Part shown: positions 2,721-27,227 of the stretch, in pieces | Numbering within the stretch: the first letter of the stretch is position 1 | Layout: the number at the start of each line of letters is the position of its first letter | Source of the DNA: Erysipelotrichaceae bacterium | GTDB lineage: Bacteria > Bacillota_I > Bacilli_A > Erysipelotrichales > Erysipelotrichaceae | Assembly (NCBI GenBank): GCA_963663995.1 | Contig: OY760660.1 | Location: forward strand, 1,710,001 to 1,742,000 | Length of the DNA: 32,000 nucleotides | Direction of reading: 5' to 3' | The notes under the pieces: model-generated | The model's input: only the letters and a program-made list of their open reading frames with translations | Told to the model about the DNA's origin: nothing | Databases searched by the model: none | Translations under genes and position numbers: made by a program

Positions 2721-2781
2721 ACAAAAAAGAAGAAGTATCTTGTTTTAGGATAAATCTGAAATTAGAAATAAAAGTCTTCTG

Positions 2782-2810
2782 AAGGTGGTAGCATGCTACC
2801 ACCTTTCTTT
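2782..2810 (+). terminator. Rho-independent terminator of gdhA
   Basis: Perfect GC-rich hairpin AAGGTGGTAGC/GCTACCACCTT followed by a T-rich tract. Confidence 0.8.
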
Positions 2811-2820
2811 ATCTCTCGCA

Positions 2821-2852
2821 GTAGTTATATTTTAATGTAGTTATATTTTAAT
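2821..2852. repeat. Perfect tandem duplication of a 16-bp unit (GTAGTTATATTTTAAT x2)
   Basis: Read directly: 2821-2836 equals 2837-2852. Confidence 0.9.
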
Positions 2853-3028
2853 AAGGTTTGATTATAAGTAATAGAGTATTAAGAAGATGCTTGAAACATA
2901 TAAAATGGAAGTCAATAGACTGCATTTTTAGCTTAATATAAAACAAAGTGTTATATATGTTTTACATATATCGAGAAGCGTGTTATAGCAACAAAGTAAA
3001 AAATATTTTACATTATAGGAGGTATGAA

Positions 3029-3253
3029 ATGGATTGGTCATTTATTACATTAATTGCTGTACTTGTTATTTTGGTAATACTGATTTTTGTGTTTTTAGTT
3101 TCACTACTCAATGAAGGTGACGAAAGATATGAATATATAAAAACAAAAGCGATGAGAGATTCTTTTATTTCAACTGCTGGTGCCTTGGTAATACGTGTCT
3201 GTTTCAAATCTTTAATCCCAGCAATCAAAGCAACAACACCTCAGCTAATCTGA
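3029..3253 (+). CDS. Small membrane protein, probably a decayed (frameshifted) copy of a multi-TM partner of small XRE regulators
   Basis: AGGAGG at 3017-3022 sits 6 nt before the ATG at 3029, which is in frame with listed ORF 2948-3253. An N-terminal TM helix is followed by a DERYEYIKTKA motif. A further TM-like segment (LNLLITTAIIFLISLE) and a basic tail (HRRKYGY) lie in other frames downstream, suggesting frameshifts. Confidence 0.5.
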   Translation: MDWSFITLIAVLVILVILIFVFLVSLLNEGDERYEYIKTKAMRDSFISTAGALVIRVCFKSLIPAIKATTPQLI

Positions 3254-3326
3254 ATTTACTCATCACAACGGCCATTATATTTTTGATTTCATTAGAATAG
3301 CATAGAAGAAAATATGGTTATTGATA

Positions 3327-3410
3327 ATGAATAATAAAATTCGAGAATTGCGGAAAGAAAAAAAGTTATCCCAAGATGAATTAGCAAAGCTCAGTGATGT
3401 TTTTCTATAA
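3327..3410 (+). pseudogene. Truncated XRE/Cro-type HTH regulator (only about 25 N-terminal codons remain)
   Basis: MNNKIRELRKEKKLSQDELAKLSDV matches the N-terminal half of the roughly 65-aa XRE HTH regulators. The reading frame leaves family-like sequence at 3392, where repeat module A begins, and stops at 3408-3410. Confidence 0.75.
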
Positions 3411-3624
3411 CTAAATTAATAGCTAAATAGGTGCTCGGCCAATAAACCACAGAGTCTGGAAATGTTTACTTTTCTGCACTAATAGAGAAGTCTAGTAAAT
3501 ACACGCTACTTAACGTATCTTGTCAAGATATAATTATAAAGGAATATTAAAGTTAATAAGAATAATTTGTAAGTACAAATGTGAGTATGCTATAATTTAT
3601 CGCAAATAATAGAAGTAAGTGGGG
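3392..3624 (+). repeat. Repeat module A: conserved upstream segment, palindromic operator ATTTGTAAGTACAAAT (3565-3580), extended -10 TGCTATAAT (TATAAT at 3591-3596) and conserved leader motif TAAGTGGGG (3616-3624)
   Basis: Aligns by eye along its length with 7894-8119 and 9266-9439, and in its 3' part with 8262-8349. A roughly 45-bp core around the palindrome is near-identical to copy B. Confidence 0.8.
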
Positions 3625-3805
3625 ACTTATAATTATTGGGACTGGGGAATACAAATCATATACATAGAACTAACAGTACAATCGTTACTGATTTTTTTGT
3701 TATACAAAAACCTATGTTTTTTATAAAGGTTTAGAAAGGAGGCTTATGCGAAATTGAACTGTAGTGATTGGATGATTTAGTATATTAAAATTGAAAGGAA
3801 AATTT

Positions 3806-4429
3806 ATGAAAAAAATAATTAAAATCATATCCTCTATACTAATGGTATTAAGTTTATCAAGTCCAGTTTACGGTATTACAAAGCTGACCAATAATACATC
3901 TTTGTATTATATGCGAGAACAACTTTTACAAGACATTGCATTAATAGAAAGTGTTGATATAAGTGATTTAAAAGAATTTCAAAATGATAATAAAAAATGG
4001 ATTGAGGATGTTAATTCTAGATTAGAAAATTATATTTCATTGGTTTCCGATAGTAAATATATGAGAACTACTATTTTAAAAAATCTTATTAGTGAATCAA
4101 TCAATAAATATTTGTTGGAAGATGATAATTATATGAGTTCTCGATCTGTATCTGACTATTTTAATTACAATATTTATCATTTTAGAAACGGGTATTGGAC
4201 ATATAGTTTACAGCCAAAATCATCAACTAGATTATTACGTTATGTAGCAATCGAAGGTTGGGAGGAGTTAAAAGGTATATATTATGCCATCTCTATTGAT
4301 GGTGGTAGTTTATATAACCAATATATGTGTCATTTTGATCTTGTTGTTGAAGAAGATTGGGACATAGAGCGTGGCAGACCGCATGTTTTATATTTTTTGA
4401 CTGTTTTAGCGCTATGCAACCCTGAGTGA
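3806..4429 (+). CDS. Secreted protein with a DUF2599-like C-terminal region
   Basis: The ATG at 3806 is in frame with the listed TTG at 3791. Signal peptide MKKIIKIISSILMVLSLSSPVYG. The C-terminal SLYNQYMCHFD...EEDWDIERGRP resembles the QxxCH...WxxE..RP pattern I recall for DUF2599. That assignment comes from memory, not from a search. Confidence 0.65.
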   Translation: MKKIIKIISSILMVLSLSSPVYGITKLTNNTSLYYMREQLLQDIALIESVDISDLKEFQNDNKKWIEDVNSRLENYISLVSDSKYMRTTILKNLISESINKYLLEDDNYMSSRSVSDYFNYNIYHFRNGYWTYSLQPKSSTRLLRYVAIEGWEELKGIYYAISIDGGSLYNQYMCHFDLVVEEDWDIERGRPHVLYFLTVLALCNPE

Positions 4430-4504
4430 AGTATAATAAATGGAATCAAATTTAATAAATTACTATTTTATAAACAGAGTTAAAGCCTGTTGCGTAGGTG
4501 GTTT

Positions 4505-4822
4505 ATGCCATTAACTTTTTATTTTTTACTTTTTACCATAATACTCATTTTAATCATCATTTTTTCAAATGCAAAGGTCTTTAATTTTAGTAGAACAGCT
4601 AGTGAAAAAATAGATGTCTTATTACTTATTTTTAGTGTTTTTTCGCTAATTATATCTGTGAAATTATTTTGGAATCTTGCCGTTTATACTGACGATTTTG
4701 GCGCAACAATTAAAGAATTATTTGGTGGATATTTTTGGCTATATATGAATTGGCTGAATCTACTTGTTTTATATCTAATGAGTATGGTGTTGTTGACTAA
4801 AATTAAAAGAAAAAAAGACTAA
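4505..4822 (+). CDS. Small three-TM membrane protein (orphan)
   Basis: Three hydrophobic helices and a basic tail (KIKRKKD). It lies directly downstream of the secreted protein gene. The start could be the ATG at 4505 or the TTG at 4490. Confidence 0.55.
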   Translation: MPLTFYFLLFTIILILIIIFSNAKVFNFSRTASEKIDVLLLIFSVFSLIISVKLFWNLAVYTDDFGATIKELFGGYFWLYMNWLNLLVLYLMSMVLLTKIKRKKD

Positions 4823-4912
4823 ACTTGTTAAACTGTACCCTATAGAGTAGACACGATAAAAAAGTGTTACCCTTGAACTTGTAAAGGAAAATTAGACAAG
4901 TTTAAAAAACAA

Positions 4913-5713
4913 TTAGAACCCTAAGTCATGTTTATATTGAATTGGGGTTTTATATTGTAAGGTATATGCAGGACGTTCATGATTAAAATGATGAATATAT
5001 TCTTTAATTGTTTGATAAACATCATTTGAACGAGAGATATTAAAATCTATATACAATTCATCTTTCATCCATCCATTAAGTGCTTCATTGACTGGATTAT
5101 CCGTAGGTGTACCTGAGCGATTCATCGAACGAATAATGTTATAATTTGAAAGAGCTTGATTGAAAGCTTTACTGGAGTAGACTGACCCTTGATCTGTGTG
5201 AAGGATGATGGGGTATTCTATTCCTTTTATTTGCTTTAAATATTGGGATAAACAATCATAATAAGGTTTAATATCACCTTTTTGAGATGACATGGATTGA
5301 GCGATAATTTCATTATTGAACGTATCGATAAACAATGTGAGTTCATATGCTTTCCCTCGATTACGAATCTGAGTCATGTCTGATACGACAATCTCATAAG
5401 GTTTTGAGGCATTCCAATGCCCAGCCACTTCATTTTTGTAAATGACATGCTCATCACCAACTTTTCGATATCTATACTTTCTCGCACTTGATTTTAAACC
5501 CAACTGTTTCATACATTTATGAACCAAGTGATCAGAGAACACAAACTCTGTTTGATTACGTAATTCATAGGCTACTCGATGATAACCATAAGTCTTATGT
5601 TTTTGATGTATTTGCGTAATATATGGTATTAACTTCATTCGATATTGGATGTATTGATTAGGTCTATCTTTGCGCTCTAACCATTTGTAGTACCCTGATC
5701 GATTCAATCCCAT
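4913..5713 (-). CDS. IS3-family transposase OrfB (DDE/rve integrase core), expressed as an OrfAB fusion by -1 frameshift
   Basis: rve-type core present (HTDQGSVYSS..., NPVNEALNGWMKDE). The orfB frame stays open upstream of the listed Met as far as the slippery site and reads ...ERSWFTEGIRYTIRQDYQIADGLKDKYSITQLLKEMGL. Confidence 0.9.
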   Translation of the reverse strand: MGLNRSGYYKWLERKDRPNQYIQYRMKLIPYITQIHQKHKTYGYHRVAYELRNQTEFVFSDHLVHKCMKQLGLKSSARKYRYRKVGDEHVIYKNEVAGHWNASKPYEIVVSDMTQIRNRGKAYELTLFIDTFNNEIIAQSMSSQKGDIKPYYDCLSQYLKQIKGIEYPIILHTDQGSVYSSKAFNQALSNYNIIRSMNRSGTPTDNPVNEALNGWMKDELYIDFNISRSNDVYQTIKEYIHHFNHERPAYTLQYKTPIQYKHDLGF

Positions 5714-5760
5714 TTCTTTAAGTAATTGAGTAATTGAATATTTATCTTTTAATCCATCAG

Positions 5761-6138
5761 CTATTTGATAGTCTTGCCGGATAGTGTAACGTATTCCTTC
5801 TGTGAACCAACTCCTTTCACGGTGTATCCTTTTTTTAAGCGTTCAATTTCAATGTCTCGTTTCATAAGCTCAAGTTTTAAACGTTCAACTTCAGTTAAAT
5901 TTTTACTTGTATACAGGGCTGAATAAGGGTTGCCTTTGCCCTTGTGAATGGTTCTAAGACCTTCAATTCCATTCTCTCGATAATGTCTTATCCAGTTTCT
6001 GATGACGGAATGACTAATGTTTAATTCCGATTCTAAGCGAGGTAGTGAAACTCTATCTTCTAAATAACGATTAATTACTTCAATCATAAATTCTAATTCG
6101 TATTTTCTGTTCTTCCCACCTTTTGGTCTTCCTCTCAT
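5761..6138 (-). CDS. IS3-family transposase OrfA (HTH)
   Basis: 125 aa with an HTH and leucine-zipper-like region (ERLKLELMKRDIEIERLKKGY). AGGAGG precedes the ATG. Confidence 0.9.
   Translation of the reverse strand: MRGRPKGGKNRKYELEFMIEVINRYLEDRVSLPRLESELNISHSVIRNWIRHYRENGIEGLRTIHKGKGNPYSALYTSKNLTEVERLKLELMKRDIEIERLKKGYTVKGVGSQKEYVTLSGKTIK
5830..5836 (-). promoter_or_regulatory. Programmed -1 frameshift slippery heptamer (A AAA AAA G) of IS copy 1
   Basis: The minus strand reads CGC TTA AAA AAA GGA in the orfA frame. The -1 frame is open from here into orfB. Confidence 0.75.
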
Positions 6139-6272
6139 ATAACCTCCTTTTCTTTAGGTATAAGAAAAAAGTAGACTTTATTCAAGAAAATGGTTTTTTC
6201 TTGTGTCTACTTTTACTTTACTACTTCACCCTATAGGGTTTTTAAATATAATAAAGAAAATGAGGAAAAGTT

Positions 6273-6707
6273 ATGAGTAAAGTCCGATTTTCAGAAGAAC
6301 AGATTAAACGATTGAAAGATAATCCGTATATAGAAAATATTAGTGAAAAGTCGATAACTTACACGATGGCTTTTAGAGAGAAATCAGTTGATTTGTATCA
6401 GAGAGGATATAGTTCTAGACAGATTTTCGAAGATGCAGGATTAAGTGTTAAAGATTTAGGAATGAATCGTATCCGTTTGTCGTTAGAGCGTTGGCGAAAG
6501 ATGAGTAAACGCGATGAAGGGTTTAAAGACACGCGAAAAGGAAGTTCAGGTCGTTCAAGACAAAAGCCAAGAACACTAGAAGAAGAACTTAAGTATTTGA
6601 AAGATCGAAATGAATACTTAGAACAGGAGAATGAATTCTTAAAAAAGCTCGACGCACTGGAAAGGAGTGTGAGATACAACTTAGCGCACAAGAAAAATAC
6701 GAAATAA
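6273..6707 (+). CDS. IS3-family transposase OrfA
   Basis: 144 aa with an HTH region and a coiled-coil (LKYLKDRNEYLEQENEFLKKLDALE). A GAGGAAAA Shine-Dalgarno sequence lies upstream. Confidence 0.9.
   Translation: MSKVRFSEEQIKRLKDNPYIENISEKSITYTMAFREKSVDLYQRGYSSRQIFEDAGLSVKDLGMNRIRLSLERWRKMSKRDEGFKDTRKGSSGRSRQKPRTLEEELKYLKDRNEYLEQENEFLKKLDALERSVRYNLAHKKNTK
6641..6647 (+). promoter_or_regulatory. Programmed -1 frameshift heptamer A AAA AAG of IS copy 2
   Basis: TTC TTA AAA AAG CTC in the orfA frame. This is the classic IS3/IS150 slippery motif, and the -1 frame is open from here. Confidence 0.8.
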
Positions 6708-6754
6708 TTTTTAACCTTAATTCAAAACGTAAAAATCGTTTAGATATAAATTAT

Positions 6755-7639
6755 ATGTGTACAATCGCACAAGTATCCAGATCAGGTTATTACGCCTTTA
6801 TCAAACGCAAACGAAGCCTTAATTTTAAAGACATTCAAGATGAGATTGATTTTGCCTACATCAAAGAAGCCTTCAACTATCGTGGCTATGATAAGGGTGC
6901 ACGACCCATTAAGATGTATCTTCAAGATAAACATAATAGGTGTATGAATCTTAAGAAAATACGAAGATTAATGCGTAAATACGGCTTAGTGTGTGAGATT
7001 AGACAAGCAAATCCATATCGACAAATGATGAGAGATATGGCAACTAACGATATATCAGTCAATCGAGTTAATCGACAATTCAAACAAGGGGTTGCGCGTA
7101 AAATACTTCTCACAGATATTACGTATATTACTTATGGTTCTCATAAGCGAGCTTATTTATCTGTCATCAAAGATGCCTCTAGTAATAAGATATTATCTTA
7201 TAGGGTATCAGAATCCTTAGATGTCTCGTTTGTATTAAAGACCGTTCAAGGGCTTATTGAAACACAAATGGGTGATTTAAATCTAAAGGTTCTCATTCAC
7301 TCAGATCAAGGTTCACATTATACATCAAGAGCCTTTAAACAAGTCTTAGATGAACTAGGAATTGAAAGTTCAATGTCGAGACGTGGAAATTGTTTAGATA
7401 ATGCAGCTCAAGAAAGTTTCTTTGGGCACATGAAAGATGAAGTAAAATTTAAGCATTATAAGACCTATATTGAATGTGTTGAAGCGATTATGGACTATAT
7501 CAACTACTATAATTATGATCGCCCACAATGGGGGTTACATCGTATGACACCTCATAAATATGAAAGTTACTTAGATCGTTCAGATGATATTCCATTATTA
7601 TTACCTGTTCTCTATCATCAGCCAGTAATATACCTATAA
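6755..7639 (+). CDS. IS3-family transposase OrfB (DDE/rve), OrfAB fusion by -1 frameshift
   Basis: rve core present (HSDQGSHYTS, GNCLDNAAQESFFGHMKDE). The orfB frame is open back to the slippery site and reads KARRTGKECEIQLSAQEKYEIIFNL.... Confidence 0.9.
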   Translation: MCTIAQVSRSGYYAFIKRKRSLNFKDIQDEIDFAYIKEAFNYRGYDKGARPIKMYLQDKHNRCMNLKKIRRLMRKYGLVCEIRQANPYRQMMRDMATNDISVNRVNRQFKQGVARKILLTDITYITYGSHKRAYLSVIKDASSNKILSYRVSESLDVSFVLKTVQGLIETQMGDLNLKVLIHSDQGSHYTSRAFKQVLDELGIESSMSRRGNCLDNAAQESFFGHMKDEVKFKHYKTYIECVEAIMDYINYYNYDRPQWGLHRMTPHKYESYLDRSDDIPLLLPVLYHQPVIYL

Positions 7640-7875
7640 TTCAATCGTTTCTCTTAAACATATTTTTATTATGATCAAACGAAAAAGGAACATATTTTCT
7701 ATTCAGAAATTCTGTTCCTTTTATCTAATTCTCTAAAGTCCTTTTTTTAAGTGTCCTTGACAAAGGGGACAGTTCATGTTGAAGTAATATAATTTAGAGT
7801 TTGGCTAAAAGAGTAACAGTTTACTTAATGTTTATTTAACGCATCAATTTTCTCACCATAAAATATAATAGTTTT

Positions 7876-7905
7876 AAAACATCACCTTTGTGCCAGTGAT
7901 GTTTT
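7876..7905 (+). terminator. Rho-independent terminator hairpin whose right arm starts repeat module B
   Basis: AAAACATCAC / GTGATGTTTT stem with a T-run. The left arm is absent from copy A. Confidence 0.65.
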
Positions 7906-8119
7906 TATAGGACTAAATTTATAGCTAAATGGATGATTGGCCAATAAATCATTGTGTCTATAAATGTCTACTTCCTTGAACTTATTTCATATTAAATGGC
8001 TAATAAACGTAACTTACTAATTTATAATTGTAAGGGTATATTAAAGTTAATATGAATAATTTATAAGTACAAATGTGAGTATAAGTTGAATCGTCACAAA
8101 CTGAAAGACCTATGTGAAA
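7894..8119 (+). repeat. Repeat module B (orphan copy): operator ATTTATAAGTACAAAT at 8059-8074 and a degenerate -10 (TATAAG)
   Basis: Collinear with module A from CAGTGATGTTTTT onwards. No intact ORF follows; a Shine-Dalgarno-like AAAGGAGA at about 8215 has no start codon after it. Confidence 0.75.
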
Positions 8120-8261
8120 TTAGCAGAATAGATCCATTCAATATATGACTACAAGAAAATAGTCAGTCAACCATAAATAAATATAAAGATTAAGGTAATA
8201 AATAATTTCATTTAAAAGGAGAAGTTAACTACAATTAGACATAATTTGAAAAAATAATGCT

Positions 8262-8349
8262 TTAGATGTATATTTGAGTAAGTAAATAAATTTGTAATTA
8301 CAAATTTGAATATAGTTTTAATTGTCACAATTCAGCAGATTAAGTGGGG
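8262..8349 (+). repeat. Repeat module D (3' part only): perfect 20-bp palindrome AAATTTGTAATTACAAATTT (8288-8307), -10 TATAGT, leader motif TAAGTGGGG (8341-8349)
   Basis: Read directly. Same order and spacing of operator, -10 and leader motif as module A. It sits directly upstream of CDS 8413-9150. Confidence 0.75.
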
Positions 8350-8412
8350 TGAAATGTATAATAAACCGAATTTTATTAGAATAAATATACTATTTATGAA
8401 TAAGGGGATTTC

Positions 8413-9150
8413 ATGAAAAAGTCATTAAGAAAATTGTTATTGGCAACTATGTACTTGGTTATAGTTAATAAAACATCAACTTTAAATGTTGTTGCTAAAA
8501 TTATTAATGATTCCACCAAAAACAAAAATGATATCTGGGTGGAACAAATTAATGAAAACGGAGAATATTTAGTAAATATAATATCAGGTGAAACTATGAG
8601 CGGTTTTATATCTGTAAGTGGTGAAAGTATTTCGATTAATGAAATGAAAGAGAGACTCAATAATTACGAAGTTGAATTTACCAAAGTTATATTTATTGAA
8701 GAGAAATTAGCAAGTTGTCCTATTTTCAACATAAACTCTGAAGCAAGATATAATTTTAATAAACGGCGCGAATGGGTTTCGTGGAAATTAAATCAATTTA
8801 AAGTAACACCAACGATCGTAGGACCAGCTACAATTTCCTACGGAAATTCAATCACAACAACTGAAAGTTTTGACTTCATTCCTGTAACAGTGACTGAACC
8901 TATTAGAAATTTACTTAGAGATAATGCCTCGTTTACATGGGTTAACTTCGCTTCAAGTATAACTTATTTCGATAAGACATTTACAGTTGTTGATGGGAAA
9001 GCAGGATATGTTGCTTTTTCGCCAGCAAATAATAATATTTCAGCAGACGTAACTATCAATGGTGTACATCGTATAGTAAAAGGAACATCTCCAATAATTC
9101 TTTCAAATAATATAAATGATGGGTTTTATGCGTGTATAAATTGTATCTAA
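8413..9150 (+). CDS. Orphan protein, probably secreted, of unknown function
   Basis: 245 aa with AAGGGGA before the ATG. The N-terminus is hydrophobic (KLLLATMYLVIV). The C-terminal half is beta-rich and Ser/Thr-rich. I recognise no family motif. Confidence 0.7.
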   Translation: MKKSLRKLLLATMYLVIVNKTSTLNVVAKIINDSTKNKNDIWVEQINENGEYLVNIISGETMSGFISVSGESISINEMKERLNNYEVEFTKVIFIEEKLASCPIFNINSEARYNFNKRREWVSWKLNQFKVTPTIVGPATISYGNSITTTESFDFIPVTVTEPIRNLLRDNASFTWVNFASSITYFDKTFTVVDGKAGYVAFSPANNNISADVTINGVHRIVKGTSPIILSNNINDGFYACINCI

Positions 9151-9174
9151 AAAAATAGTTGGTTGGTGTTTATT

Positions 9175-9220
9175 AAAAAAACCTCAAGAGAAGGACTGAT
9201 AAGATCCATCTGAGGTTTTT
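9175..9220 (+). terminator. Probable terminator of CDS 8413-9150
   Basis: AACCTCA / TGAGGTT stem with an A-run before and a T-run after. The loop is unusually large (about 24 nt). Confidence 0.55.
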
Positions 9221-9265
9221 AAATGTAAGCTCTAGGTCAAATGTTGGAATAATTCAAAAAATAAC

Positions 9266-9439
9266 TTAGCCGATAAATATTTACTTTTTTGTGTTTATAG
9301 ATCAGTCTAATAAATAGAGCTTCTTAACATATCTTACCAATATATAACTGAATGAGTATGTTCAAGACAATAAGAATAATTTGCAATTACTTATGTGAAT
9401 ATAGGATGAATTATCATAATACGATTGATATAAGTGGTG
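9266..9439 (+). repeat. Repeat module C (orphan copy at the island's right edge): degenerate operator ATTTGCAATTACTTAT (9379-9394) and leader motif TAAGTGGTG
   Basis: Collinear by eye with modules A and B. Only a 40-codon ORF (9444-9566) follows. Confidence 0.7.
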
Positions 9440-9810
9440 TAATATGGAAAATAATTTTTCCAAAAATAAGTTTAAAATTATCCATAAAAAATCTTTTTTA
9501 TTAATTTTGGATTCAGTCAATGATTTTTCAAAAAGATTCACAATCCATAGGGACAATTTTCATTAATTTCTGATATTTAAGGTAATATAGCGTTTTCATC
9601 AAACAATAAAAGTAAGTGATTTTACATTTGTTCTATGTATGTTTATTGTAGTATATTTGCTCAAGTAATTTATATCCTTAGAATCTTAACAACATATATT
9701 CAGTTAATGGTTTTTAGACGTTAAAAAACTAACTATCCTTTTTATATTATTTCCATAATAAGTAAAAATTAGAATGATTAATATTTATTTAGTTATTACT
9801 TGCATTTCTA

Positions 9811-10983
9811 TTACTTTTCGATAAAGGATTGTAGTTTATCCATTCCAATTGCACCAAGAGGAGCTGTCACTAATATTGCAAGTACAGCCATTGCTAAGAT
9901 GGTATTACCACTCTCTAGTCCAACGCTAAGTGGTATAGCACCAATCGCTGCTTGTACGGTTGCTTTAGGTGAATAAGCGACCATACAATAAAGTTTCTCT
10001 TTAAATGTAAAATGATTCTTTGACACTGAAATAAAAACACCAATAGATCTAAAGAATAAACCAATCATAAGTAAGATTAAAGCACTTAATCCGATGTATT
10101 GCAGATGATTTAAATCTACGATTGCTCCAACTAAGACAAAGAGTAATAACTCTGCCGCAACCCATGTTTTGTTGAATTTTGAAGATAAACGATGCGCCAA
10201 AATTGGGTAATGTTGAAGTAAAGCAATGCCCATTGCTAGGATTGAAATGTAACCTGAAAAAGGGATAAAGTCTCCATAATAAGATTCAATATTAACAAGC
10301 ACAAATGAAGTGGCTAATAGGATTAGATATTTTACTGTATCTCTAATATGAAATCTCTTGAAAAATTTGACTAATAAAATACTGATTAGAATACCCATTA
10401 AGATACCTGTTAAAAGACCAATCGGTAACTTTATAAAGGTCATGGCATTGATGCTTTGTCCAAGTGCTAATGCGAGAAATGAACTAAATAACACAATAAC
10501 AAATACATCATCGACTGATGCACCAGCCATGATTAATTGTGGAATCTTCTTATGATTAACTTGATCATTGTTGATGAGTTTCAGCATACGAGGTACCACC
10601 ACTGCTGGTGAAACAGCCGCAATGATACTTGCTAGTAGTGCTGCATCAATGGTAGATAGACCTAAGAAAATGGGAGCTAATAAAGTGATGGTGATTATTT
10701 CAATACTTGCCGGTAAAAAGGATAATAATATAGCTGGGCGTCCTATTTTCTTCAAATCTTCGATATCCAAAGCTAAGCCAGCTCTTAGTAAAATGACGAT
10801 TAAAGCAACTTGTCTTAGTTCACTTGAAATATATAATATTTTTGAGTCGATTAAATTTAAACTATGAGGACCTAAAAGCATACCTGCAATCATCATACCG
10901 ATTAATCCAGGTAATTTAAGATGGTTTAAAATGCCGCTAAACAGTAATCCTGTTAATAAAATAATCGCTAAACTCAATAACAT
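9811..10983 (-). CDS. Cation:proton antiporter (Na+/H+ exchanger family)
   Basis: 390 aa, highly hydrophobic with about 11-12 TM segments. The N-terminus LPGLIGMMIAGMLLGP is typical of CPA-type exchangers. Confidence 0.8.
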   Translation of the reverse strand: MLLSLAIILLTGLLFSGILNHLKLPGLIGMMIAGMLLGPHSLNLIDSKILYISSELRQVALIVILLRAGLALDIEDLKKIGRPAILLSFLPASIEIITITLLAPIFLGLSTIDAALLASIIAAVSPAVVVPRMLKLINNDQVNHKKIPQLIMAGASVDDVFVIVLFSSFLALALGQSINAMTFIKLPIGLLTGILMGILISILLVKFFKRFHIRDTVKYLILLATSFVLVNIESYYGDFIPFSGYISILAMGIALLQHYPILAHRLSSKFNKTWVAAELLLFVLVGAIVDLNHLQYIGLSALILLMIGLFFRSIGVFISVSKNHFTFKEKLYCMVAYSPKATVQAAIGAIPLSVGLESGNTILAMAVLAILVTAPLGAIGMDKLQSFIEK

Positions 10984-11422: not shown

Positions 11423-12073
11423 ATGGCGAGAAAAGCACGAAATACATTAGATTCAAATCTTGTTTTAATTACCCAAGTTTCACAATGTGAAGTTTTTCGT
11501 GATGATAGTGATCGTGAACATTTCTTAACTTTAATAGAAAAAACACAGAACCAGTATAACTGTAATATATTAGCTTTTTGTTGCTCTGAGGATTTTGGTT
11601 TCCAAATAGTTTTAGATACGAAGAGTGCGAATCTATCACGAATTATGCAATCTATTCAAATATCTTATGCGATGTATCGTAAATGTGAAGAAAGATTATT
11701 TGAGCAACGGTATAAATCTTATCCACTTTATTCGGTTGAGCAGCTCAAAGAAAAGATTCAAGAAATAGGATTAAAAGATCCGCAATTTGCAGGCTGTTGT
11801 TTTATGAAGGATGAAACACATTCATGGATGAGAAAAGTGAATTTAGATGCAACTCAATTCGCTCGTAGTGAACATGAGATCAATAGTCGAACTTATCTGC
11901 AAAAGTATCTTGATGAGCATGGATTAACTTTTGAAGATTTATTAAAAGATAAAGTTTTACGTAACAAGGCAATCTTTGAATTACGACAAAATTCGAGCTG
12001 TACATTAAAGAGACTATCAATAGCCTTTAATTTATCGGAATCGACTATTTCAAAAATCCTTAAACAATTTTAA
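11423..12073 (+). CDS. IS200/RayT-like (Y1 HUH-superfamily fold) protein lacking the HUH motif, with a C-terminal HTH
   Basis: The N-terminus MARKARN...FRDDSDREHFL...ILAFCC...LSRIMQSIQISYAMY...RLFEQRYKS is collinear with REP-associated/IS200-like tyrosine transposases. The position of the His-hydrophobic-His motif reads SEDFGFQ. The C-terminal LKRLSIAFNLSESTISKILK looks like an HTH. Confidence 0.6.
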   Translation: MARKARNTLDSNLVLITQVSQCEVFRDDSDREHFLTLIEKTQNQYNCNILAFCCSEDFGFQIVLDTKSANLSRIMQSIQISYAMYRKCEERLFEQRYKSYPLYSVEQLKEKIQEIGLKDPQFAGCCFMKDETHSWMRKVNLDATQFARSEHEINSRTYLQKYLDEHGLTFEDLLKDKVLRNKAIFELRQNSSCTLKRLSIAFNLSESTISKILKQF

Positions 12074-13121: not shown

Positions 13122-13760
13122 ATGGAAAAATTATTAAACACTGAAGTAGAAAATCAACTAAAAGATGTCTTCAATGGTATGACATCAGAAATCACAATGG
13201 TTTTATTCACATCAAAAGATGCGTGTGAAACTTGTGAACCTACAGAACAATTATTAACTGAAGTCGCTGCATTATCTGACAAAATTAATGTTGAATTAAA
13301 AGATATTACAGATGCTGATGCGAAGAAATATGATATTGAACGTGTACCATCATTTGTTGTTTTAAATGACAAAGGTGAAGACAAAGGGGTTAAATTCAAT
13401 GGTATCCCTGCTGGACATGAAATCAACTCATTCGTAAGTGCAATTATGGAAATGGGAGGGGCTGCATCTGAAGTACCTTCTGAAATAATTGAACGTATTG
13501 CGAAAATTGACAAACCTGTTAACATCAAAGTATTTGTTACACTATCTTGCCCACATTGCCCAGGAGCTGTTCAAAAAGCACACAAACTTGCAATGTTGAA
13601 TCCTAATGTAACCGGCGAAATGGTTGAAGCACAAACATTCTATGAGCTATCACAAAAATTCAATGTTTCTGGTGTACCAAAAATTATTATCAACGATTCT
13701 TTAGAACTTGTTGGTAATCAACCTATTGAAGCTTTCTTAGATCAAATTGAAAGTTTATAA
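13122..13760 (+). CDS. Two-unit thioredoxin-fold protein disulfide oxidoreductase (PDO / glutaredoxin-like / AhpF N-terminal-like)
   Basis: 212 aa with two CXXC motifs (CETC in the N-terminal unit, CPHC in the C-terminal unit). The size and layout match archaeal/Thermotoga PDO-type proteins. It starts 15 nt after the TrxR-like gene. Confidence 0.75.
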   Translation: MEKLLNTEVENQLKDVFNGMTSEITMVLFTSKDACETCEPTEQLLTEVAALSDKINVELKDITDADAKKYDIERVPSFVVLNDKGEDKGVKFNGIPAGHEINSFVSAIMEMGGAASEVPSEIIERIAKIDKPVNIKVFVTLSCPHCPGAVQKAHKLAMLNPNVTGEMVEAQTFYELSQKFNVSGVPKIIINDSLELVGNQPIEAFLDQIESL

Positions 13761-13767
13761 GACTAAA

Positions 13768-13796
13768 GGGCAGTTCAAATTGAACTGTCTTTTTTG
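13768..13796 (+). terminator. Rho-independent terminator
   Basis: CAGTTCA-AAT-TGAACTG hairpin followed by TCTTTTTT. Confidence 0.8.
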
Positions 13797-13814
13797 TGGT
13801 ATATTAATGTCCGT

Positions 13815-14720
13815 ATGAGAACTGAAGAAAAACAACTTAAATTAATCTGGAAGAAGATTGGTCAACTAGATCGTCATTACTATAAAAATGCAGTTGAACC
13901 AAAGGGTGCTTTTGTTTCTGAAAGTATTAATTATCTTAATGATGATAATCCAATGCATGAGTTAGAAGTAGTATTGCCTAATGAAAATAATCAGTGTCTA
14001 CCAGTGATTATCAATATTCATGGTGGGGCATGGATTTATGGTGAAAAAGATTCGTATTACAAATATTATTGTATGGAACTTGCCCAGTTTAATTATGCTG
14101 TTATTAGTATTAATTATCGTTTAGCTTTTGAAGAGCCATTTCCTTCAATGATTGAAGATATCTTTGCGGTGTTTGCATGGTTAGAAAATCAAACAAGCTA
14201 CGATTTTGATTTAAACAATATTTTCTTAGTGGGTGATTCTGCAGGGGCACATTTAGCGGCACTATCTGCACAAATTACACAGTCTGATATATTACTGAAA
14301 CAATATCAAGTAACTCAGCCAAAATTTACGATACGTGGATTAGGTTTAAGTTCAGGTGTCTATGATTTTGATGAATTAATGGAAGGTGATAATGAACTAC
14401 CATTAAAAAAGACATTGCTAGAAGTTATGTTTAAACGAATTGATTTTAGAAATAATCCAATTTATCCATATGCATCCGTATCAAAGAATTTAAACAGTGA
14501 TTTTACACCTGCTTATGTTGTGTCATCCTTAGCTGATCCACTAACACATGAGTCAAAAAGATTTGTTGAGGAACTCAGTGAAAAAGGCTGTCATTTTAAG
14601 CAACATTTCTTTGATAAATCCTTAGAATTACCTCATGTATTTAATCTAAAAAGTATCTATCCTGAGAGTGATTTAGTAAACTCAGAAATGATTGCATTCT
14701 TTGACTCTTTAAAGGCTTGA
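13815..14720 (+). CDS. Alpha/beta hydrolase, HSL-type esterase/lipase
   Basis: Oxyanion-hole motif HGGAW and nucleophile elbow GDSAGAH. The listed TTG at 13794 lies inside the upstream terminator, so the ATG at 13815 is preferred. The start remains uncertain. Confidence 0.8.
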   Translation: MRTEEKQLKLIWKKIGQLDRHYYKNAVEPKGAFVSESINYLNDDNPMHELEVVLPNENNQCLPVIINIHGGAWIYGEKDSYYKYYCMELAQFNYAVISINYRLAFEEPFPSMIEDIFAVFAWLENQTSYDFDLNNIFLVGDSAGAHLAALSAQITQSDILLKQYQVTQPKFTIRGLGLSSGVYDFDELMEGDNELPLKKTLLEVMFKRIDFRNNPIYPYASVSKNLNSDFTPAYVVSSLADPLTHESKRFVEELSEKGCHFKQHFFDKSLELPHVFNLKSIYPESDLVNSEMIAFFDSLKA

Positions 14721-22943: not shown

Positions 22944-24104
22944 ATGAACTATGTATTTATTTCTGTGAGCTTTCCGGATAATTTTAAGTATTTTGTTAAT
23001 CGATTAAACTCGTATGGTATTAACGTATTTGGAATTGCTTCCGATAACTTTGATGCGCTTGATCCTGACTTGCGAGAACATTTAAGTGATTATTACCGTG
23101 TGAATGATTTAGAAAATTATGAAGAAGTTTATCGTGCAGTTGCATATCTTGCTTATCGCTTTGGGAAGATTGACTATATTGAATCACACAATGAACATTG
23201 GATGGAATTGGACGCTAAACTAAGAACTGATTTCAATGTTGATGGAATAAAAAATAATTCGATTATGAGAATCAAAAAGAAATCAGAAATGAAAAAGATT
23301 TTTGAGTCTTTAAATTTAGCTCATGATGAAGGCGCAACTTTTAACACTTTAAATGAAGCGAAGAAATTAGCTAAGAAATATAAATATCCTGTATGTGTTA
23401 AACCAGATATTGGGGTTGGCGCAGCTTATACCTATCGAATCAATTCAAACGAAGATTTAGAATCATTCTATGCTTCAAAACCAGATAAAACTTTCATTAT
23501 GGAACCCTATAATGAAGGATCAATTATGACTTATGATGGGCTTTTAGATAAAGAAGGTAAGATTGTTTTTGATAATTCACTTGTTTACTCACAACCCGTC
23601 ATAGATATTGTGAATAGTAATTTAGATATGTTTTACTATACAGAATTGAAAGTAAATAAAGAACTAAAAGAAATGGGGAAAAAGATTTGTGATGCGTATC
23701 AACTTCATTCTCGTTTCTTCCATTTTGAATTTTTTAAGAGCAGTGATGGAAAACTATCACTCTTAGAAGTGAATATGCGTCCACCTGGTGGGAAAACAAT
23801 GGATATGTTCAACTTTGCGAATGACTTTGATTTCTATGATGCCTATGCCAGAATAGTAGCTAATCAAGAACTTTCGATTCCTCAAAAGAAACTTTACAGT
23901 GTTTGTCATGTTGGGTTAAAAACAGAAAATGATGATAAACGTTTATTAAAATATGATCAAATTAAAGAACAGTATGGTGATTTAATTGTCTATGAGGGTT
24001 CAATGGCTGATATTTTATCGCCAGCACTTGGAAATTACTGCTTCTTTTTGAGAAGTAAAAAGGTGTCTGAGCTTAAGAAGGCAGCTCATACGATTATAAG
24101 ATAA
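22944..24104 (+). CDS. ATP-grasp domain protein (carboxylate-amine ligase type), paralog 1
   Basis: 386 aa with AAGGTGGTGG before the ATG. ATP-grasp-like blocks YPVCVKPDIGVGA, IMEPY and LLEVNMRPPGG. Collinear with the next gene along its full length. Confidence 0.75.
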   Translation: MNYVFISVSFPDNFKYFVNRLNSYGINVFGIASDNFDALDPDLREHLSDYYRVNDLENYEEVYRAVAYLAYRFGKIDYIESHNEHWMELDAKLRTDFNVDGIKNNSIMRIKKKSEMKKIFESLNLAHDEGATFNTLNEAKKLAKKYKYPVCVKPDIGVGAAYTYRINSNEDLESFYASKPDKTFIMEPYNEGSIMTYDGLLDKEGKIVFDNSLVYSQPVIDIVNSNLDMFYYTELKVNKELKEMGKKICDAYQLHSRFFHFEFFKSSDGKLSLLEVNMRPPGGKTMDMFNFANDFDFYDAYARIVANQELSIPQKKLYSVCHVGLKTENDDKRLLKYDQIKEQYGDLIVYEGSMADILSPALGNYCFFLRSKKVSELKKAAHTIIR

Positions 24105-24116
24105 GAGGATACGTTT

Positions 24117-25286
24117 ATGAATGTTATTGTGATATCACCCCACTTTCCAGATAACTTTAGATTGTTTTCATTAGCATTATCTAAAGAAGGTATTCGTGTG
24201 TTTGGGATAGATAATCAACAATACAGTGACCTATCTCATGATTTAAAATCATCATTAACTGAGTATTATCAAGTTTCAGATTTAGAAAATTATGAAGATG
24301 TTTTAAAAGCGGTTGCTTACTTTACCCATAAGTATGGAAAAATTGATCGCATTGAGTCTCATAATGAACATTGGTTGATGTTGGATGCGAAGTTAAGAGA
24401 AGATTTTAACGTCTTTGGTTTTAAACCAAAAGATTTAAAAGCGATACAATCAAAATTAAAAATGAAAGAAGTCTTTAATGAAAATGGCATTAAAACTGCA
24501 CGTGGTATTTTAATTGAGAACTTTGAACAAACCTCTAGATTTATTAAAGAAGTTAACTATCCAGTTGTCGCTAAACCTGATACTGGTGTTGGCGCAAGTG
24601 GTACTTATAAAATTCATAATGAGGAAGAACTAAAGAATTTCTTTAAAAAGGGAATCCATACTGCTTATGTCATGGAAGAATATATCAAAGGTGAAATCCA
24701 TACTTTTGATGGTTTAGTTGATCGTAATGGGCATATCGTTTATGCCAATTCTTTTATTTTTCCTGTTGGTGTGATGGAAACAGTAAATGCTGATTTAGAT
24801 ATGATTTACTATACTCAAGCTAGTATTCCAGAGGACATAAAAGAAGCTGGATATAAAATAGTTGAAGCTTTTAATCTTAAAGAACGATTCTTTCATATTG
24901 AATTCTTTAGAACTGAAAATCAAAATTTATATGCATTAGAAATCAACGTACGTCCACCTGGTGGTTATTCTGTCGATATTTTTAACTTTGCGAATGATAC
25001 TAATTATTATGCAGAATATGCCAAACTTGTGGCTGGTCAAAAAATAGTCGAACGGATTGGGAATAAATATGTTTGTTTATATATTGGACAAAAAGCACAT
25101 TTTGAAAATGAATATAAATTAAGCAAAGAAGAAGTAAGACAAAAATATTTACCACATATTGTTTTCTATGGTGAAATAGCATCAATTTTTGCGAAAGCGA
25201 TTGGTAATTATGCTTACATTTTAAAAGGTCAAGATTTAGATGAATTAAAAAATATTGCGAAAGCCATATTGGAAAAGAGATCATAA
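24117..25286 (+). CDS. ATP-grasp domain protein, paralog 2
   Basis: 389 aa sharing blocks with paralog 1: FPDNF, YY.V.DLENYE.V..AVAY, GKID.IESHNEHW, LDAKLR.DFNV, YPV..KPD.GVGA, RFFH.EFF, E.N.RPPGG, D.FNFAND, GNY. Confidence 0.75.
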   Translation: MNVIVISPHFPDNFRLFSLALSKEGIRVFGIDNQQYSDLSHDLKSSLTEYYQVSDLENYEDVLKAVAYFTHKYGKIDRIESHNEHWLMLDAKLREDFNVFGFKPKDLKAIQSKLKMKEVFNENGIKTARGILIENFEQTSRFIKEVNYPVVAKPDTGVGASGTYKIHNEEELKNFFKKGIHTAYVMEEYIKGEIHTFDGLVDRNGHIVYANSFIFPVGVMETVNADLDMIYYTQASIPEDIKEAGYKIVEAFNLKERFFHIEFFRTENQNLYALEINVRPPGGYSVDIFNFANDTNYYAEYAKLVAGQKIVERIGNKYVCLYIGQKAHFENEYKLSKEEVRQKYLPHIVFYGEIASIFAKAIGNYAYILKGQDLDELKNIAKAILEKRS

Positions 25287-25288
25287 GT

Positions 25289-26041
25289 ATGCATGTAGAA
25301 TATCATGATTATTATAGCTATCGCTTAGGTCGAAATATGGCATTTAAGATTTATGGCCATGCTGGAAAACCAATCATAGTTTTCCCCTCTTCAGGAGGAC
25401 GTTTTTACGAGTATGAAGATTTTCAAATGATTGACTCTATTGCATGGTTTATTGATCAAGGATTAGTCAGAGTGTATACACCTGATTCAATAGATGCTGA
25501 AACATGGTTTTCAGATGACAAATGGGCTGGGGATAAAGCGCGTTATCATAATGCCTATGACCAATATATTGTCGAAGAATTTGTGCCTTATATTAGATTG
25601 CAAAGTGGATGGTCCTATCAAATGATCGTGACAGGTTGTTCAATGGGTGCCTATCATTCAGCTAATTTCTTTTTTAAACATCCAGATGTTTTTGACACAT
25701 TGATTGCTTTAAGTGGCATTTATGATGCAAGATTTTTTGTAGGCGACAATATTTCTGATACAGATGTTTATTTTAATTCTCCAGTGGATTATTTAAAAGA
25801 TTTAAATGATCCATATTATTTGGACAGAATTAAAGAAGGGAATATAATTGTATGTACAGGCCAAGGTGATTTTGAAGCTGATTCACTCAGAGATACACAG
25901 CATCTTCAATCGGTTTTGAATGAAAAAGGAATTCCGGCATGGATTGACTATTGGGGGCAAGACGTCAAACATGATTGGAAATGGTGGAAAATTCAAATGC
26001 CATATTATCTTGGTAAATTGAAAGAGTTAGGGAAACTATAG
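25289..26041 (+). CDS. Esterase-family alpha/beta hydrolase (putative-esterase / esterase D-like fold)
   Basis: 250 aa with nucleophile elbow GCSMGA. It starts 2 nt after the stop of ATP-grasp paralog 2. Confidence 0.7.
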   Translation: MHVEYHDYYSYRLGRNMAFKIYGHAGKPIIVFPSSGGRFYEYEDFQMIDSIAWFIDQGLVRVYTPDSIDAETWFSDDKWAGDKARYHNAYDQYIVEEFVPYIRLQSGWSYQMIVTGCSMGAYHSANFFFKHPDVFDTLIALSGIYDARFFVGDNISDTDVYFNSPVDYLKDLNDPYYLDRIKEGNIIVCTGQGDFEADSLRDTQHLQSVLNEKGIPAWIDYWGQDVKHDWKWWKIQMPYYLGKLKELGKL

Positions 26042-26042
26042 A

Positions 26043-27227
26043 ATGATTGATTATCCAGATTTTTTTGATCAAATTAATGATCGACACAACACCAACAGCA
26101 TGAAATGGGATGCTCATGACATGCTTAAGAAACCAAGTGACTCATATCCATTATGGGTGGCAGACATGGACTTTAAAGTCATGCCAGAAATCGTAGAAGC
26201 ATTACATAAAGAAGTTGATCTCTCGCTTTATGGCTATACTTTTGAAAGCGAAGAGTATACCAATTCTATTATCAATTGGTTAGATCGCCGACATAACTAT
26301 CACACTCAAAAAGAATGGATAACATCAACGCCTGGAGTCGTATCAGGATTAAATGCAGCCATACTTGCACTCACAAATGTTGGGGATCATATCCTTATTC
26401 AAGAACCGGTTTATTATCCTTTTAAACGCTCGATTTTAACAAACAAACGTGAAGTTACAATTAATGAACTAGTTTATAAAGATAACGAGTATTCTATCGA
26501 TTTTGTCGATTTTGAAAAACAAATTAAAGAGAATGATATAAAACTCTTTATTCTATGTTCACCACATAATCCTGTTGGGAAAGTTTTTACAGAGAATGAA
26601 CTTAGCCAAATGGTGGATATCTGTAAGAAATATGAAGTCATTATTGTTTCTGATGAAATCCATATGGACTTTGTATTTGCGCCAAATAAACATATTGTTA
26701 CGGCTGAACTTAGAAAAGATTATGCAGATCACATTATTACTTTATATGCAGCATCTAAAACATTTAACTTAGCTGGAATGAAAGTATCTCAGTTGATATC
26801 TTCAAATCTTGAAATGATAAAGAAAATTAAAGATACTTATATGATTTTAGGATTACATGGTGTCAATACAATGGGATTAATCGCATCAACAGCAGCATAT
26901 ACTTATGGTGATGCTTATGTTGATAACATTGTTTCCTATCTTGATACATCTATTAAGTGGCTACAAGATTACTTAAAAACTGAGTTGCCTCAAGTTAAAC
27001 TTGTTAATCCACAAGGGACATATATTCTTTGGTTAGATTTTAAAGCTTTGAATATGAAACAAGAAGACTTGGATCAATTCTGTTTAAATGAGGCAAAGAT
27101 GTGGCTAAATAACGGATCGCTTTTTGGTCAAGGGGGTGAAGGTTTTATGCGTATTAACATAGCCCTTCCTTTATCTGAACTTAAAAAAGTGATGAATAAT
27201 TTAAAGAAAGCGATTGATTCGCTTTAG
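26043..27227 (+). CDS. PLP-dependent class I/II aminotransferase-fold enzyme of the MalY/PatB (C-S lyase) type
   Basis: 394 aa with PLP-lysine motif AASKTFNLAGMK, plus NPHNPVGKVF-like SPHNPVGKVF and the RINIA tail typical of PatB/MalY. It starts 1 nt after the esterase stop. Confidence 0.8.
   Translation: MIDYPDFFDQINDRHNTNSMKWDAHDMLKKPSDSYPLWVADMDFKVMPEIVEALHKEVDLSLYGYTFESEEYTNSIINWLDRRHNYHTQKEWITSTPGVVSGLNAAILALTNVGDHILIQEPVYYPFKRSILTNKREVTINELVYKDNEYSIDFVDFEKQIKENDIKLFILCSPHNPVGKVFTENELSQMVDICKKYEVIIVSDEIHMDFVFAPNKHIVTAELRKDYADHIITLYAASKTFNLAGMKVSQLISSNLEMIKKIKDTYMILGLHGVNTMGLIASTAAYTYGDAYVDNIVSYLDTSIKWLQDYLKTELPQVKLVNPQGTYILWLDFKALNMKQEDLDQFCLNEAKMWLNNGSLFGQGGEGFMRINIALPLSELKKVMNNLKKAIDSL

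Follow-up and report, generated by a model that had tools for sequence, protein, structure and literature searches.

In the Bacillus cereus group, the PlcR box (TATGNAN4TNCATA) is an activator site that is located upstream of the -35 element, before many unrelated genes for secreted proteins, some of them accessory. In the blp system of Streptococcus pneumoniae and the pln system of Lactiplantibacillus plantarum, the regulated promoter is repeated before each bacteriocin/immunity cassette and carries 9-bp direct repeats for LytTR regulators, and the WalR (YycF) box, TGTWAH-N5-TGTWAH, stands ahead of genes for secreted cell-wall hydrolases. The operators of AraR in the arabinose regulon of Bacillus subtilis are recognized by a GntR-family N-terminal domain, follow the consensus ATTTGTACGTACAAAT and are placed inside core promoters or shortly after them, where they serve repression; at their center, the change of C8 to A lowered competition in vitro, and G9 is crucial, its change to T having abolished regulation (PMC1950556, PMC3592433). 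In relO, the operator of E. coli relBE that is bound by the ribbon-helix-helix protein RelB, hexads with the core [A/T]TGT[A/C]A form two contiguous 12-bp units, that is, four hexads that act cooperatively; relO overlaps the promoter, represses it and autoregulates the toxin-antitoxin operon (PMC2812701). Here, we analyze a repeated promoter module with a 16-bp AT-rich palindrome, hereafter the box, in a 32,000-nucleotide stretch of the genome of an Erysipelotrichaceae bacterium (contig OY760660.1, positions 1,710,001 to 1,742,000; hereafter the window, the source of all coordinates given without another designation).

An initial annotation of the window had reported four diverged direct copies of the module, A, B, D and C in their order along the DNA, and these were recovered at or near the same positions with a repeat finder, a MAFFT alignment and an nhmmer profile of the copies (Table 1). 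All four are in the same direct orientation, are about 120-250 bp long and show 61-78% identity between copies in the families produced by the repeat finder; the profile, run over the whole 32 kb, including the other 25 kb around the accessory island described below, detected no fifth copy inside the window. Copy D, for which only the 3' third had been claimed, is indeed a partial 3' copy that, by nhmmer, extends over the 3' half. The palindromes quoted for A, B and D, as well as the degenerate one of C, read exactly as given. They define a 16-bp consensus, ATTTGTA-NN-TACAAAT, in which A1 and T16 are conserved, a purine is retained at position 5, and the core is TTG-N6-CAA; the core is intact in A and D, as well as in the three sites from other genomes discussed next, and reads TTA-N6-CAA in B, where the sole change is G5 to A. 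A degenerate version of the core, AATTTRYAAKTACWWATKTGARTAT, has 4 exact matches in the window compared to 0.02 expected.

The box is conserved across species. A further copy of the module, E, was found in a related metagenome-assembled genome (MAG) (L014, OY781039.1; 5136-5289, nhmmer E 5.6e-4), at a different chromosomal site that is equivalent to window position 13760/13794. It lies within a 3.3-kb insert, beside an IS3 element; the insert separates the orthologs of two window genes, 13122-13760 and 13794-14720, between which the window has 33 bp. Copy E precedes a gene for a secreted protein of 137 amino acids (aa) that is followed by one for a 36-aa transmembrane (TM) peptide. The signal-peptide coding regions behind A and E are 80% identical, whereas the mature parts of the two proteins are unrelated. 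In the A-E alignment, the longest identical run, 20 nt, falls exactly at ATTTGTAAGTACAAATGTGA, whereas the remaining non-coding sequence is 50% identical (160/318); by our own estimate, a 20-nt run at this background would occur in about 3 per 10,000 alignments of such length. A possible additional 5' fragment of the module downstream of the E cassette (L014, about 4160-4300) consists of a match of only about 16 nt (nhmmer E 0.8) and was not counted.

In a third organism (L019), the box ATTTGTAATGACAAAT sits on the promoter of the gene for P0037, the only homolog of the protein encoded behind E (67% identity). It lies between a plus-strand promoter, TTGACA-17-TAATAT, and a minus-strand promoter, TTGTCA-17-TATAAT, such that it covers the -10/start site of the former, and its right half is the -35 (TTGTCA) of the latter; the minus-strand promoter faces a homologous gene for a 35-aa TM peptide. 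A box with two mismatches, ATTTGTAATAACAATT, is present in L012/L013, where it precedes, by 58 nt, the likely start codon of a gene whose product is homologous to the 245-aa protein encoded behind copy D; its alignment with copy D is ambiguous in L012, so that it provides weak support only. Altogether, five sites with at most one mismatch to ATTTGTA-NN-TACAAAT were found in 208.6 kb of non-redundant sequence, compared to 0.18 expected, and all five are upstream of signal-peptide genes. The proposal of the initial annotation that one operator-like palindrome is shared by different accessory secreted-protein genes is borne out by these numbers, by the fully identical 20 nt (20/20) of A and E and by the recurrence in L019; the conservation beyond the window that it had asked for is likewise seen in both genomes. 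Neither the module nor the box was found upstream of the more distant DUF2599 genes (L003, L004, L007-L011, L020, L021; GC content 30-46%), so the box appears to be confined to this clade. BLASTN searches with the module and with both halves of the island produced no match among plasmids and phages.

Upstream of the box, all five copies contain a sigma-70-like promoter, P1, identified by a promoter scan and the five-copy alignment, with the pattern TTGnnA-17-(T/A)AT(A/G)TT and a spacer of exactly 17 nt, within the 16-18 nt of this promoter type. Its -35 element is TTACTA in B, TTACCA in C, TTGAAA in D and TTGTGA in E, the -10 element being TATATT in B, D and E and TATGTT in C (for A, see Table 1). 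The homology of copy D to the other copies begins just upstream of the P1 -35. Given that P1 ends 15-17 nt before the box, the box would fall at about +10 to +25 of the predicted transcript. The initial annotation had instead placed a promoter over the box, with TTGTAA as the -35. This holds for A, where a second, strong promoter, P2, has this architecture; B, C, D and E show no counterpart at the right spacing, and the hexamers TATAAG, TATAGT and TATAGG named as -10 elements in B, D and C, respectively, are only 13 nt past TTGTAA, too close for sigma-70. Directly after the box, all five copies carry a second inverted repeat, TGTGA-N15-TCACA, with the right arm TCACA in B, D and E, TCGCA in A and TCATA in C, and the left arm TTTGA in D. 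The conserved transcribed motif noticed in the initial annotation is present as quoted, TAAGTGGGG in A and D and TAAGTGGTG in C, and has an equivalent, GGTGGAGG, in L019. This GTGGGG-type motif is best read as a Shine-Dalgarno sequence because its GGGGTGA pairs with the anti-Shine-Dalgarno; in C and D, an ATG follows 4 nt past it.

The first nucleotides of copies B and C are the 3' arm and T-run of a terminator hairpin that belongs to the gene before them, and when the two insertion sequences (ISs) of the island are removed in silico, copy B is found directly behind the DUF2599 operon; the module is thus a complete inter-cassette spacer. Copy A begins at the same nucleotide as B, but its upstream neighbor is codon 24 of a truncated XRE-family regulator gene. 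The 10 nt CAGTGATGTT are common to the XRE codons (S-D-V) and to the terminator arm, so that this boundary looks like a microhomology deletion junction. The claim that copy B has no intact gene behind it could not be strictly upheld: B is 231 bp upstream of D, and because no terminator separates the two, both face the 245-aa gene.

The genes behind the modules, described as orphans in the initial annotation, have relatives. The 207-aa secreted protein encoded behind A is a DUF2599 protein, with 10 clusters of homologs, and the 245-aa secreted protein encoded behind B and D has one homolog (P0035, 58% identical). DUF2599 and a protein of about 105 aa with three TM segments form a pair that is conserved across lineages (window 3806-4822; L004, L007, L020), and a Gly-rich protein of 137/143 aa with a TM peptide of about 35 aa is a second conserved pair (L014 4346-4959; L019 296-952). 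These cassettes of a secreted protein and a small membrane protein suggest an effector/immunity layout. For the predicted structure of the DUF2599 protein (predicted local distance difference test score (pLDDT) 67), there was no fold match in PDB (best E 1.3), and the model of the 245-aa protein (pLDDT 34) was unusable; a literature search on DUF2599 returned nothing relevant. In other lineages, DUF2599 genes adjoin genes for PedC-like, DsbB or DsbA disulfide-bond proteins, and ECF sigma/anti-sigma or LytTR genes are sometimes nearby. Furthermore, in several unrelated lineages, a strong Shine-Dalgarno sequence and a mini-ORF (open reading frame) of 2-5 codons (MRN, MRLNY, MH or MI, each followed by a stop) are present 50-70 nt upstream of DUF2599-type genes (window 3738-3764; L014 about 5035-5000, minus strand; L020 1075-1090; L007 1540-1560), which may be a conserved translational leader feature.

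The interpretation that we consider moderately probable is that the modules are paralogous inter-cassette spacers that carry a DNA operator for one trans-acting dimeric repressor ahead of secreted-protein cassettes. Such a spacer would consist, in this order, of the preceding terminator, about 110 bp, P1 (TTGnnA-17-TATATT), about 16 nt, ATTTGTA-NN-TACAAAT, TGTGA-N15-TCACA and the Shine-Dalgarno sequence, and the palindrome would be bound by a dimer (or dimer of dimers) of a protein encoded elsewhere in the genome. The geometry points to a repressor rather than an activator because the box is always inside or just downstream of a core promoter: at about +10 to +25 of P1 in A-E, on the -35 of P2 in A, and on the -10/start and the divergent -35 in L019; repression would proceed by occlusion or roadblock. 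By its recognition pattern, with the TTG-N6-CAA core, A1, T16 and the purine at position 5, the box resembles the sites of GntR-type winged-helix proteins such as AraR. The cassettes under this control would be those of DUF2599 and the three-TM protein, of the 137-aa Gly-rich protein and the 35-aa TM peptide, and of the 245-aa protein. The similar spacers, together with nearby IS3 elements, probably supply the homology for gain, loss and movement of cassettes, which would account for copy C having no cargo, for B and D standing in tandem and for the sister species carrying its cassette elsewhere on the chromosome.

Several observations weigh against this interpretation. The box was seen in only three or four related organisms, neither the window nor any of the fetched loci yielded a gene for a cognate regulator, GntR family included, and because the box resembles the operators of two unrelated families, AraR and RelB, motif resemblance alone cannot name the binding protein. 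All start sites are predicted from hexamer matches, and matches to the -35/-10 hexamers are no more frequent here than in shuffled sequence. The half-site TTGTAA is itself a good -35 hexamer, so part of the conservation of the box could reflect promoter function rather than repressor binding. Finally, box C is degenerate, with three mismatches, and a scan of the whole collection with AATTTRYAAKTACWWATKTGARTAT gave 0 matches in genome contigs and 0 in viral contigs, zeros that carry little weight because the pattern is too strict and would miss copy E. A lone metagenome match to this pattern (L002), inside a gene of an organism with very AT-rich DNA, was dismissed as due to chance.

A more elaborate scenario, which we regard as rather unlikely, is that of a portable 5' expression module comprising the promoter, the operator, a leader with a mini-ORF and, in A and E, the signal peptide, that recombines to swap effector/immunity cargoes between chromosomal sites behind one repressor-controlled switch; by analogy, it would be the 5'-end counterpart of C-terminal toxin swapping in polymorphic toxin loci. 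The box, leader and signal-peptide region shared by A and E ahead of unrelated mature domains bear on this scenario. It is improbable that the palindrome is only a feature of the core promoter, that is, two back-to-back -35-like TTGTAA elements of a once bidirectional promoter kept for RNA polymerase, with no dedicated regulator. TTGTAA does serve as the -35 of the strong promoter of A, and in L019, the right half of the box is a divergent -35 and the plus-strand promoter abuts the left half. However, there is no divergent gene at A-E, where a co-directional terminator precedes each module, B, C, D and E lack a -10 at 16-18 nt from TTGTAA, and what is conserved is 16-20 bp, A1, T16 and the symmetric right half among them, which exceeds a hexamer by far. 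Quite improbable, too, is an operator whose repressor is of the ribbon-helix-helix (RelB/CopG-like) or XRE type instead of the GntR type. Copy A does adjoin a truncated XRE gene, but the operon of that gene has its own, different palindrome. As to RelB, the perfect 12-bp half-site (the right unit) of relO recurs without change in copy D as TTGTAATTACAA, the L019 box contains TTGTAATGACAA, matching the other half-site, TTGTAATGACAT, at 11/12 positions, and a relB-family antitoxin gene with a palindrome of its own is located 0.85 kb from the L012 box; but relO needs two contiguous 12-bp units, and the adjacent hexad here, ATGTGA, breaks the core. Moreover, RelB autoregulates toxin-antitoxin operons, not secreted-protein genes, and the conservation of the outer A1 and T16 is what a 16-bp site would show. 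The perfect palindrome that precedes the relB-family gene in L012 (6130-6165, minus strand) is TTGTAACGCAAATTGCGTTACAA, TTGTAAC-N9-GTTACAA, with the same TTGTAA hexad as the box, and the RelE/ParE-like ORF beside this gene carries an internal stop.

That the copies are neutral leftovers of a segmental duplication of a gene and its flank, with a functionless palindrome, is strongly disfavored. The divergence of the copies by 22-39%, the loss of their own cargo by C and B, and the ISs and microhomology junction that show the locus being scrambled would all fit neutrality, which leaves without explanation the identical box inside 50%-identical flanks in two species, its recurrence in an L019 promoter with otherwise unrelated flanks, and the presence of genes from three unrelated families downstream. 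The chance is slim that the module is the 5' end of a small RNA, an alternative raised in the initial annotation, or a structured 5' untranslated region with the palindrome as an RNA hairpin. If P1 is used, the box would be transcribed, and TCGCA in A and TCATA in C can still pair with TGTGA via G-U. However, no match was found in the island in Rfam at gathering and relaxed thresholds (for 3200-9800, at E up to 5), the module leaders fold no better than shuffles (z-scores +0.04 to -1.05), and the consensus structure from RNAalifold has only -2.1 kcal/mol. The box hairpins amount to 0 to -4.5 kcal/mol, and that of B does not fold, its G5-to-A change being uncompensated although the purine is kept; in L019, the predicted start site falls inside the box, part of which would thus be missing from the RNA. 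Function at the DNA level appears to be the better reading of the box. Equally slim is the chance that the palindrome is a recombination or transposition site, such as the end of a mobile element or a cassette attachment site. Cassettes do occupy different chromosomal sites in sister species, and IS3 elements are found 120-170 bp from copies B and E. Against this stand the absence of the box from any IS end or island boundary, its dissimilarity to IS inverted ends, the lack of an island recombinase gene besides the IS3 transposases, and the expectation that, with four active direct copies inside 6 kb, the DNA between them would be lost. Repressor-controlled spacers are the interpretation that we favor, and overall, that of the initial annotation is partly supported.

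Table 1. Positions of the modules, their elements and the associated genes in the window
Feature	Position	Strand	Remarks
Accessory island	2725-9810	.	7.1 kb; between gdh (1374-2720, +) and the Na+/H+ antiporter gene (9811-10983, -)
Truncated XRE/HTH_3 regulator gene	3327-3410	+	27 codons, translation MNNKIRELRKEKKLSQDELAKLSDVFL, then stop; cut exactly at the start of copy A
Module copy A (full length)	3392-3640	+	nhmmer E 5e-69
P1 of copy A	3520-3548	+	TTGTCA-17-AATATT; promoter scan
Box A (putative operator)	3565-3580	+	ATTTGTAAGTACAAAT; 20-nt stretch 3565-3584 identical in copy E of L014
P2 of copy A	3567-3596	+	TTGTAA-18-TGcTATAAT; promoter scan, 10/12 with TG; box overlaps its -35
Second inverted repeat of A	3580-3604	+	TGTGA-N15-TCGCA
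Shine-Dalgarno-like motif of A	3616-3624	+	TAAGTGGGG
Cargo of A: 207-aa secreted DUF2599 protein	3806-4429	+	Pfam DUF2599 E 4.7e-10; 10 clusters of homologs
Membrane partner of DUF2599 protein, multi-TM, about 83-110 aa	4490-4822	+	33-38% identical to proteins of about 105 aa behind DUF2599 genes in L004, L007, L020
IS3-family insertion sequence 1	4836-6240 (approximate ends)	-	ORFs 4913-5713, 5761-6138; inverted ends visible
IS3-family insertion sequence 2	6241-7775 (approximate ends)	+	ORFs 6273-6707, 6755-7639; weak matches to annotated IS3 transposases
Terminator hairpin of DUF2599 operon	7876-7905	+	AAAACATCAC-10-GTGATGTTTT and T-run; copy B begins with its 3' arm (12 nt); parted from the operon by two ISs
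Module copy B	7894-8130	+	nhmmer E 9e-62; P1 8014-8042, box 8059-8074 ATTTATAAGTACAAAT, TGTGA-N15-TCACA 8074-8098
Module copy D (3' half only)	8235-8361	+	nhmmer E 6e-23, profile positions 118-246; P1 8246-8274, box 8288-8307 AAATTTGTAATTACAAATTT (perfect 20-mer palindrome), TCACA 8325-8329, TAAGTGGGG 8341-8349
20-codon upstream ORF	8354-8416	+	Translation MYNKPNFIRINILFMNKGIS, then stop; opens behind the D motif; its TGA overlaps the ATG of the 245-aa gene
Cargo of B and D: 245-aa secreted protein	8413-9150	+	Weak DUF6060 similarity
Terminator hairpin of 245-aa gene	9180-9221	+	3' arm aligns with the start of A and B
Module copy C (decaying)	9246-9451	+	nhmmer E 1e-49; P1 9334-9362, degenerate box 9379-9394 ATTTGCAATTACTTAT, TGTGA-N15-TCATA 9394-9418, TAAGTGGTG 9431-9439
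40-codon ORF behind copy C	9444-9566	+	Pfam: no family match

The window DNA (GC content about 32%) is of the low-GC Firmicutes type and contains T-box, glmS and tRNA genes. The small accessory island recognized in the initial annotation is an insertion: in a related species with 81% nucleotide identity (L005/L006), about 60 bp separate gdh from the convergent antiporter gene, and the related MAG (L014) has no insert at this site either. The island comprises a small TM gene and the truncated XRE gene (Pfam HTH_3, positions 1-21 of 55, E 5e-5), the DUF2599 gene with its multi-TM partner, two IS3-family elements, the 245-aa gene and the four modules; a metagenome contig of the same species (L001) is 99.9% identical to the window and breaks inside an IS. 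The antiporter protein is 86% identical to its OY781039.1 counterpart. In OY781039.1, gdh, which is present in the window and in L005/L006, is absent (comparison with L014 11168-11192), and an amylosucrase-like gene adjoins the antiporter gene directly; the gdh-antiporter junction thus seems to be a variable spot within the clade.

At the left edge of the island, just past the gdh terminator, the repeat finder revealed an exact tandem duplication of the 16-mer GTAGTTATATTTTAAT (2821-2852). An 8-3-8 palindrome, ATATATGTTTTACATATAT, at 2953-2971 precedes the operon of the small TM gene (3029-3253) and the truncated XRE gene and overlaps a -35-like TTTACA that is 17 nt before TATAGC; it is probably the own operator of this small operon, unrelated to the module box. 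The two IS3-family elements, which differ from each other, stand back to back and separate the DUF2599 operon from its terminator, and copy E has a third IS3-type element (L014 5466-7186) about 170 bp upstream, such that IS3 elements repeatedly adjoin modules. Farther along the window, the ORF 11423-12073 (216 aa) combines an IS200-like Y1 transposase N-terminal domain with a C-terminal helix-turn-helix; being syntenic in L014, it looks domesticated or housekeeping rather than an active IS. Downstream of the tRNA cluster, two paralogous ATP-grasp genes, an esterase-like gene and an aminotransferase gene (22944-27227) may form a small peptide or amino-acid ligation cluster.

If the proposed arrangement is correct, a cis-regulatory motif and a small regulon, made up of secreted/membrane-partner cassettes, are defined for a lineage of Erysipelotrichaceae that is uncultured and probably host-associated, and for which we know of no described regulation. 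ATTTGTA-NN-TACAAAT beside a signal-peptide gene would then be a handle for finding further accessory effectors in these genomes, and the 20-bp palindrome would be a bait for fishing out the regulator; the conserved spacers and IS3 elements would provide a putative route of cassette reshuffling. No established concept is challenged, and the general interest is modest.

The contention of the initial annotation that the palindrome is not a known box was too strong, given its similarity to two described operators, although membership in neither family is established. Like the AraR operators, the box is a 16-bp AT-rich palindrome with the core TNG-N6-CNA, A1, Pu5, T6, A11, Py12, T16 and the GntR signature GT-Nx-AC; its identity to ATTTGTACGTACAAAT is 15/16 in A and E, 14/16 in B, D and L019 and 11/16 in C. 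The central C8-G9 is not preserved: position 8 is A in every copy, and G9 is kept in A, B and E and replaced by T in C, D and L019. Furthermore, no paired in-phase operators of the AraR kind are seen at the modules, and the cargo consists of secreted proteins rather than arabinose/arabinan utilization genes, with no glycoside hydrolase or sugar-pathway domain in the DUF2599, DUF6060-like and 137-aa Gly-rich proteins. The box shares with relO the overlap with a promoter and the hexad core on both strands, in inverted hexads without spacing that form a 12-bp unit; besides the half-sites in D and L019, A and E have TTGTAAGTACAA. Unlike relO, there is only one such unit, with conservation spanning 16-20 bp: the next 12 bp in A, ATGTGAGTATGC, provide no second unit and no fourth hexad, and there is no toxin or antitoxin gene in the island, near E or near the L019 box. 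The cargo genes fit neither an AraR nor a RelB regulon, and a GntR-like recognition pattern of the box-binding protein is slightly favored because the conservation spans 16 bp.

Other known boxes were compared as well. The WalR consensus is not matched: A can be read as a direct repeat with secreted-protein genes downstream, TGTAAG-N6-TGTGAG, but the spacing is N6 instead of N5, the second hexamer deviates, and direct repeats leave the conserved symmetric right half-site unexplained. The sequence or spacing likewise disagrees with CcpA cre, CodY, the 7-1-7 sites of Fur/PerR/Zur, Rex, TnrA/GlnR, LytTR repeats, dif and DnaA boxes, and CRP/FNR sites have TGTGA-N6-TCACA as opposed to N15 in the module repeat. 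In its logic, the locus recalls PlcR, with one palindromic box on the promoters of unrelated secreted-protein genes, but the sequence differs, the box falls inside the core promoter or past it, and there is neither an RRNPP-type regulator nor a peptide gene. It also recalls blp and pln, with near-identical promoter modules before secreted/membrane cassettes of variable content, orphan promoters and IS scars; in contrast to these systems, the module has a palindrome, the island has no LytTR regulator, histidine kinase or ABC exporter, and the cargo has Sec-type signal peptides. The element appears to be a new, lineage-specific example of a familiar arrangement, namely, a repressor-type operator in a repeated promoter spacer before accessory secreted-protein cassettes.

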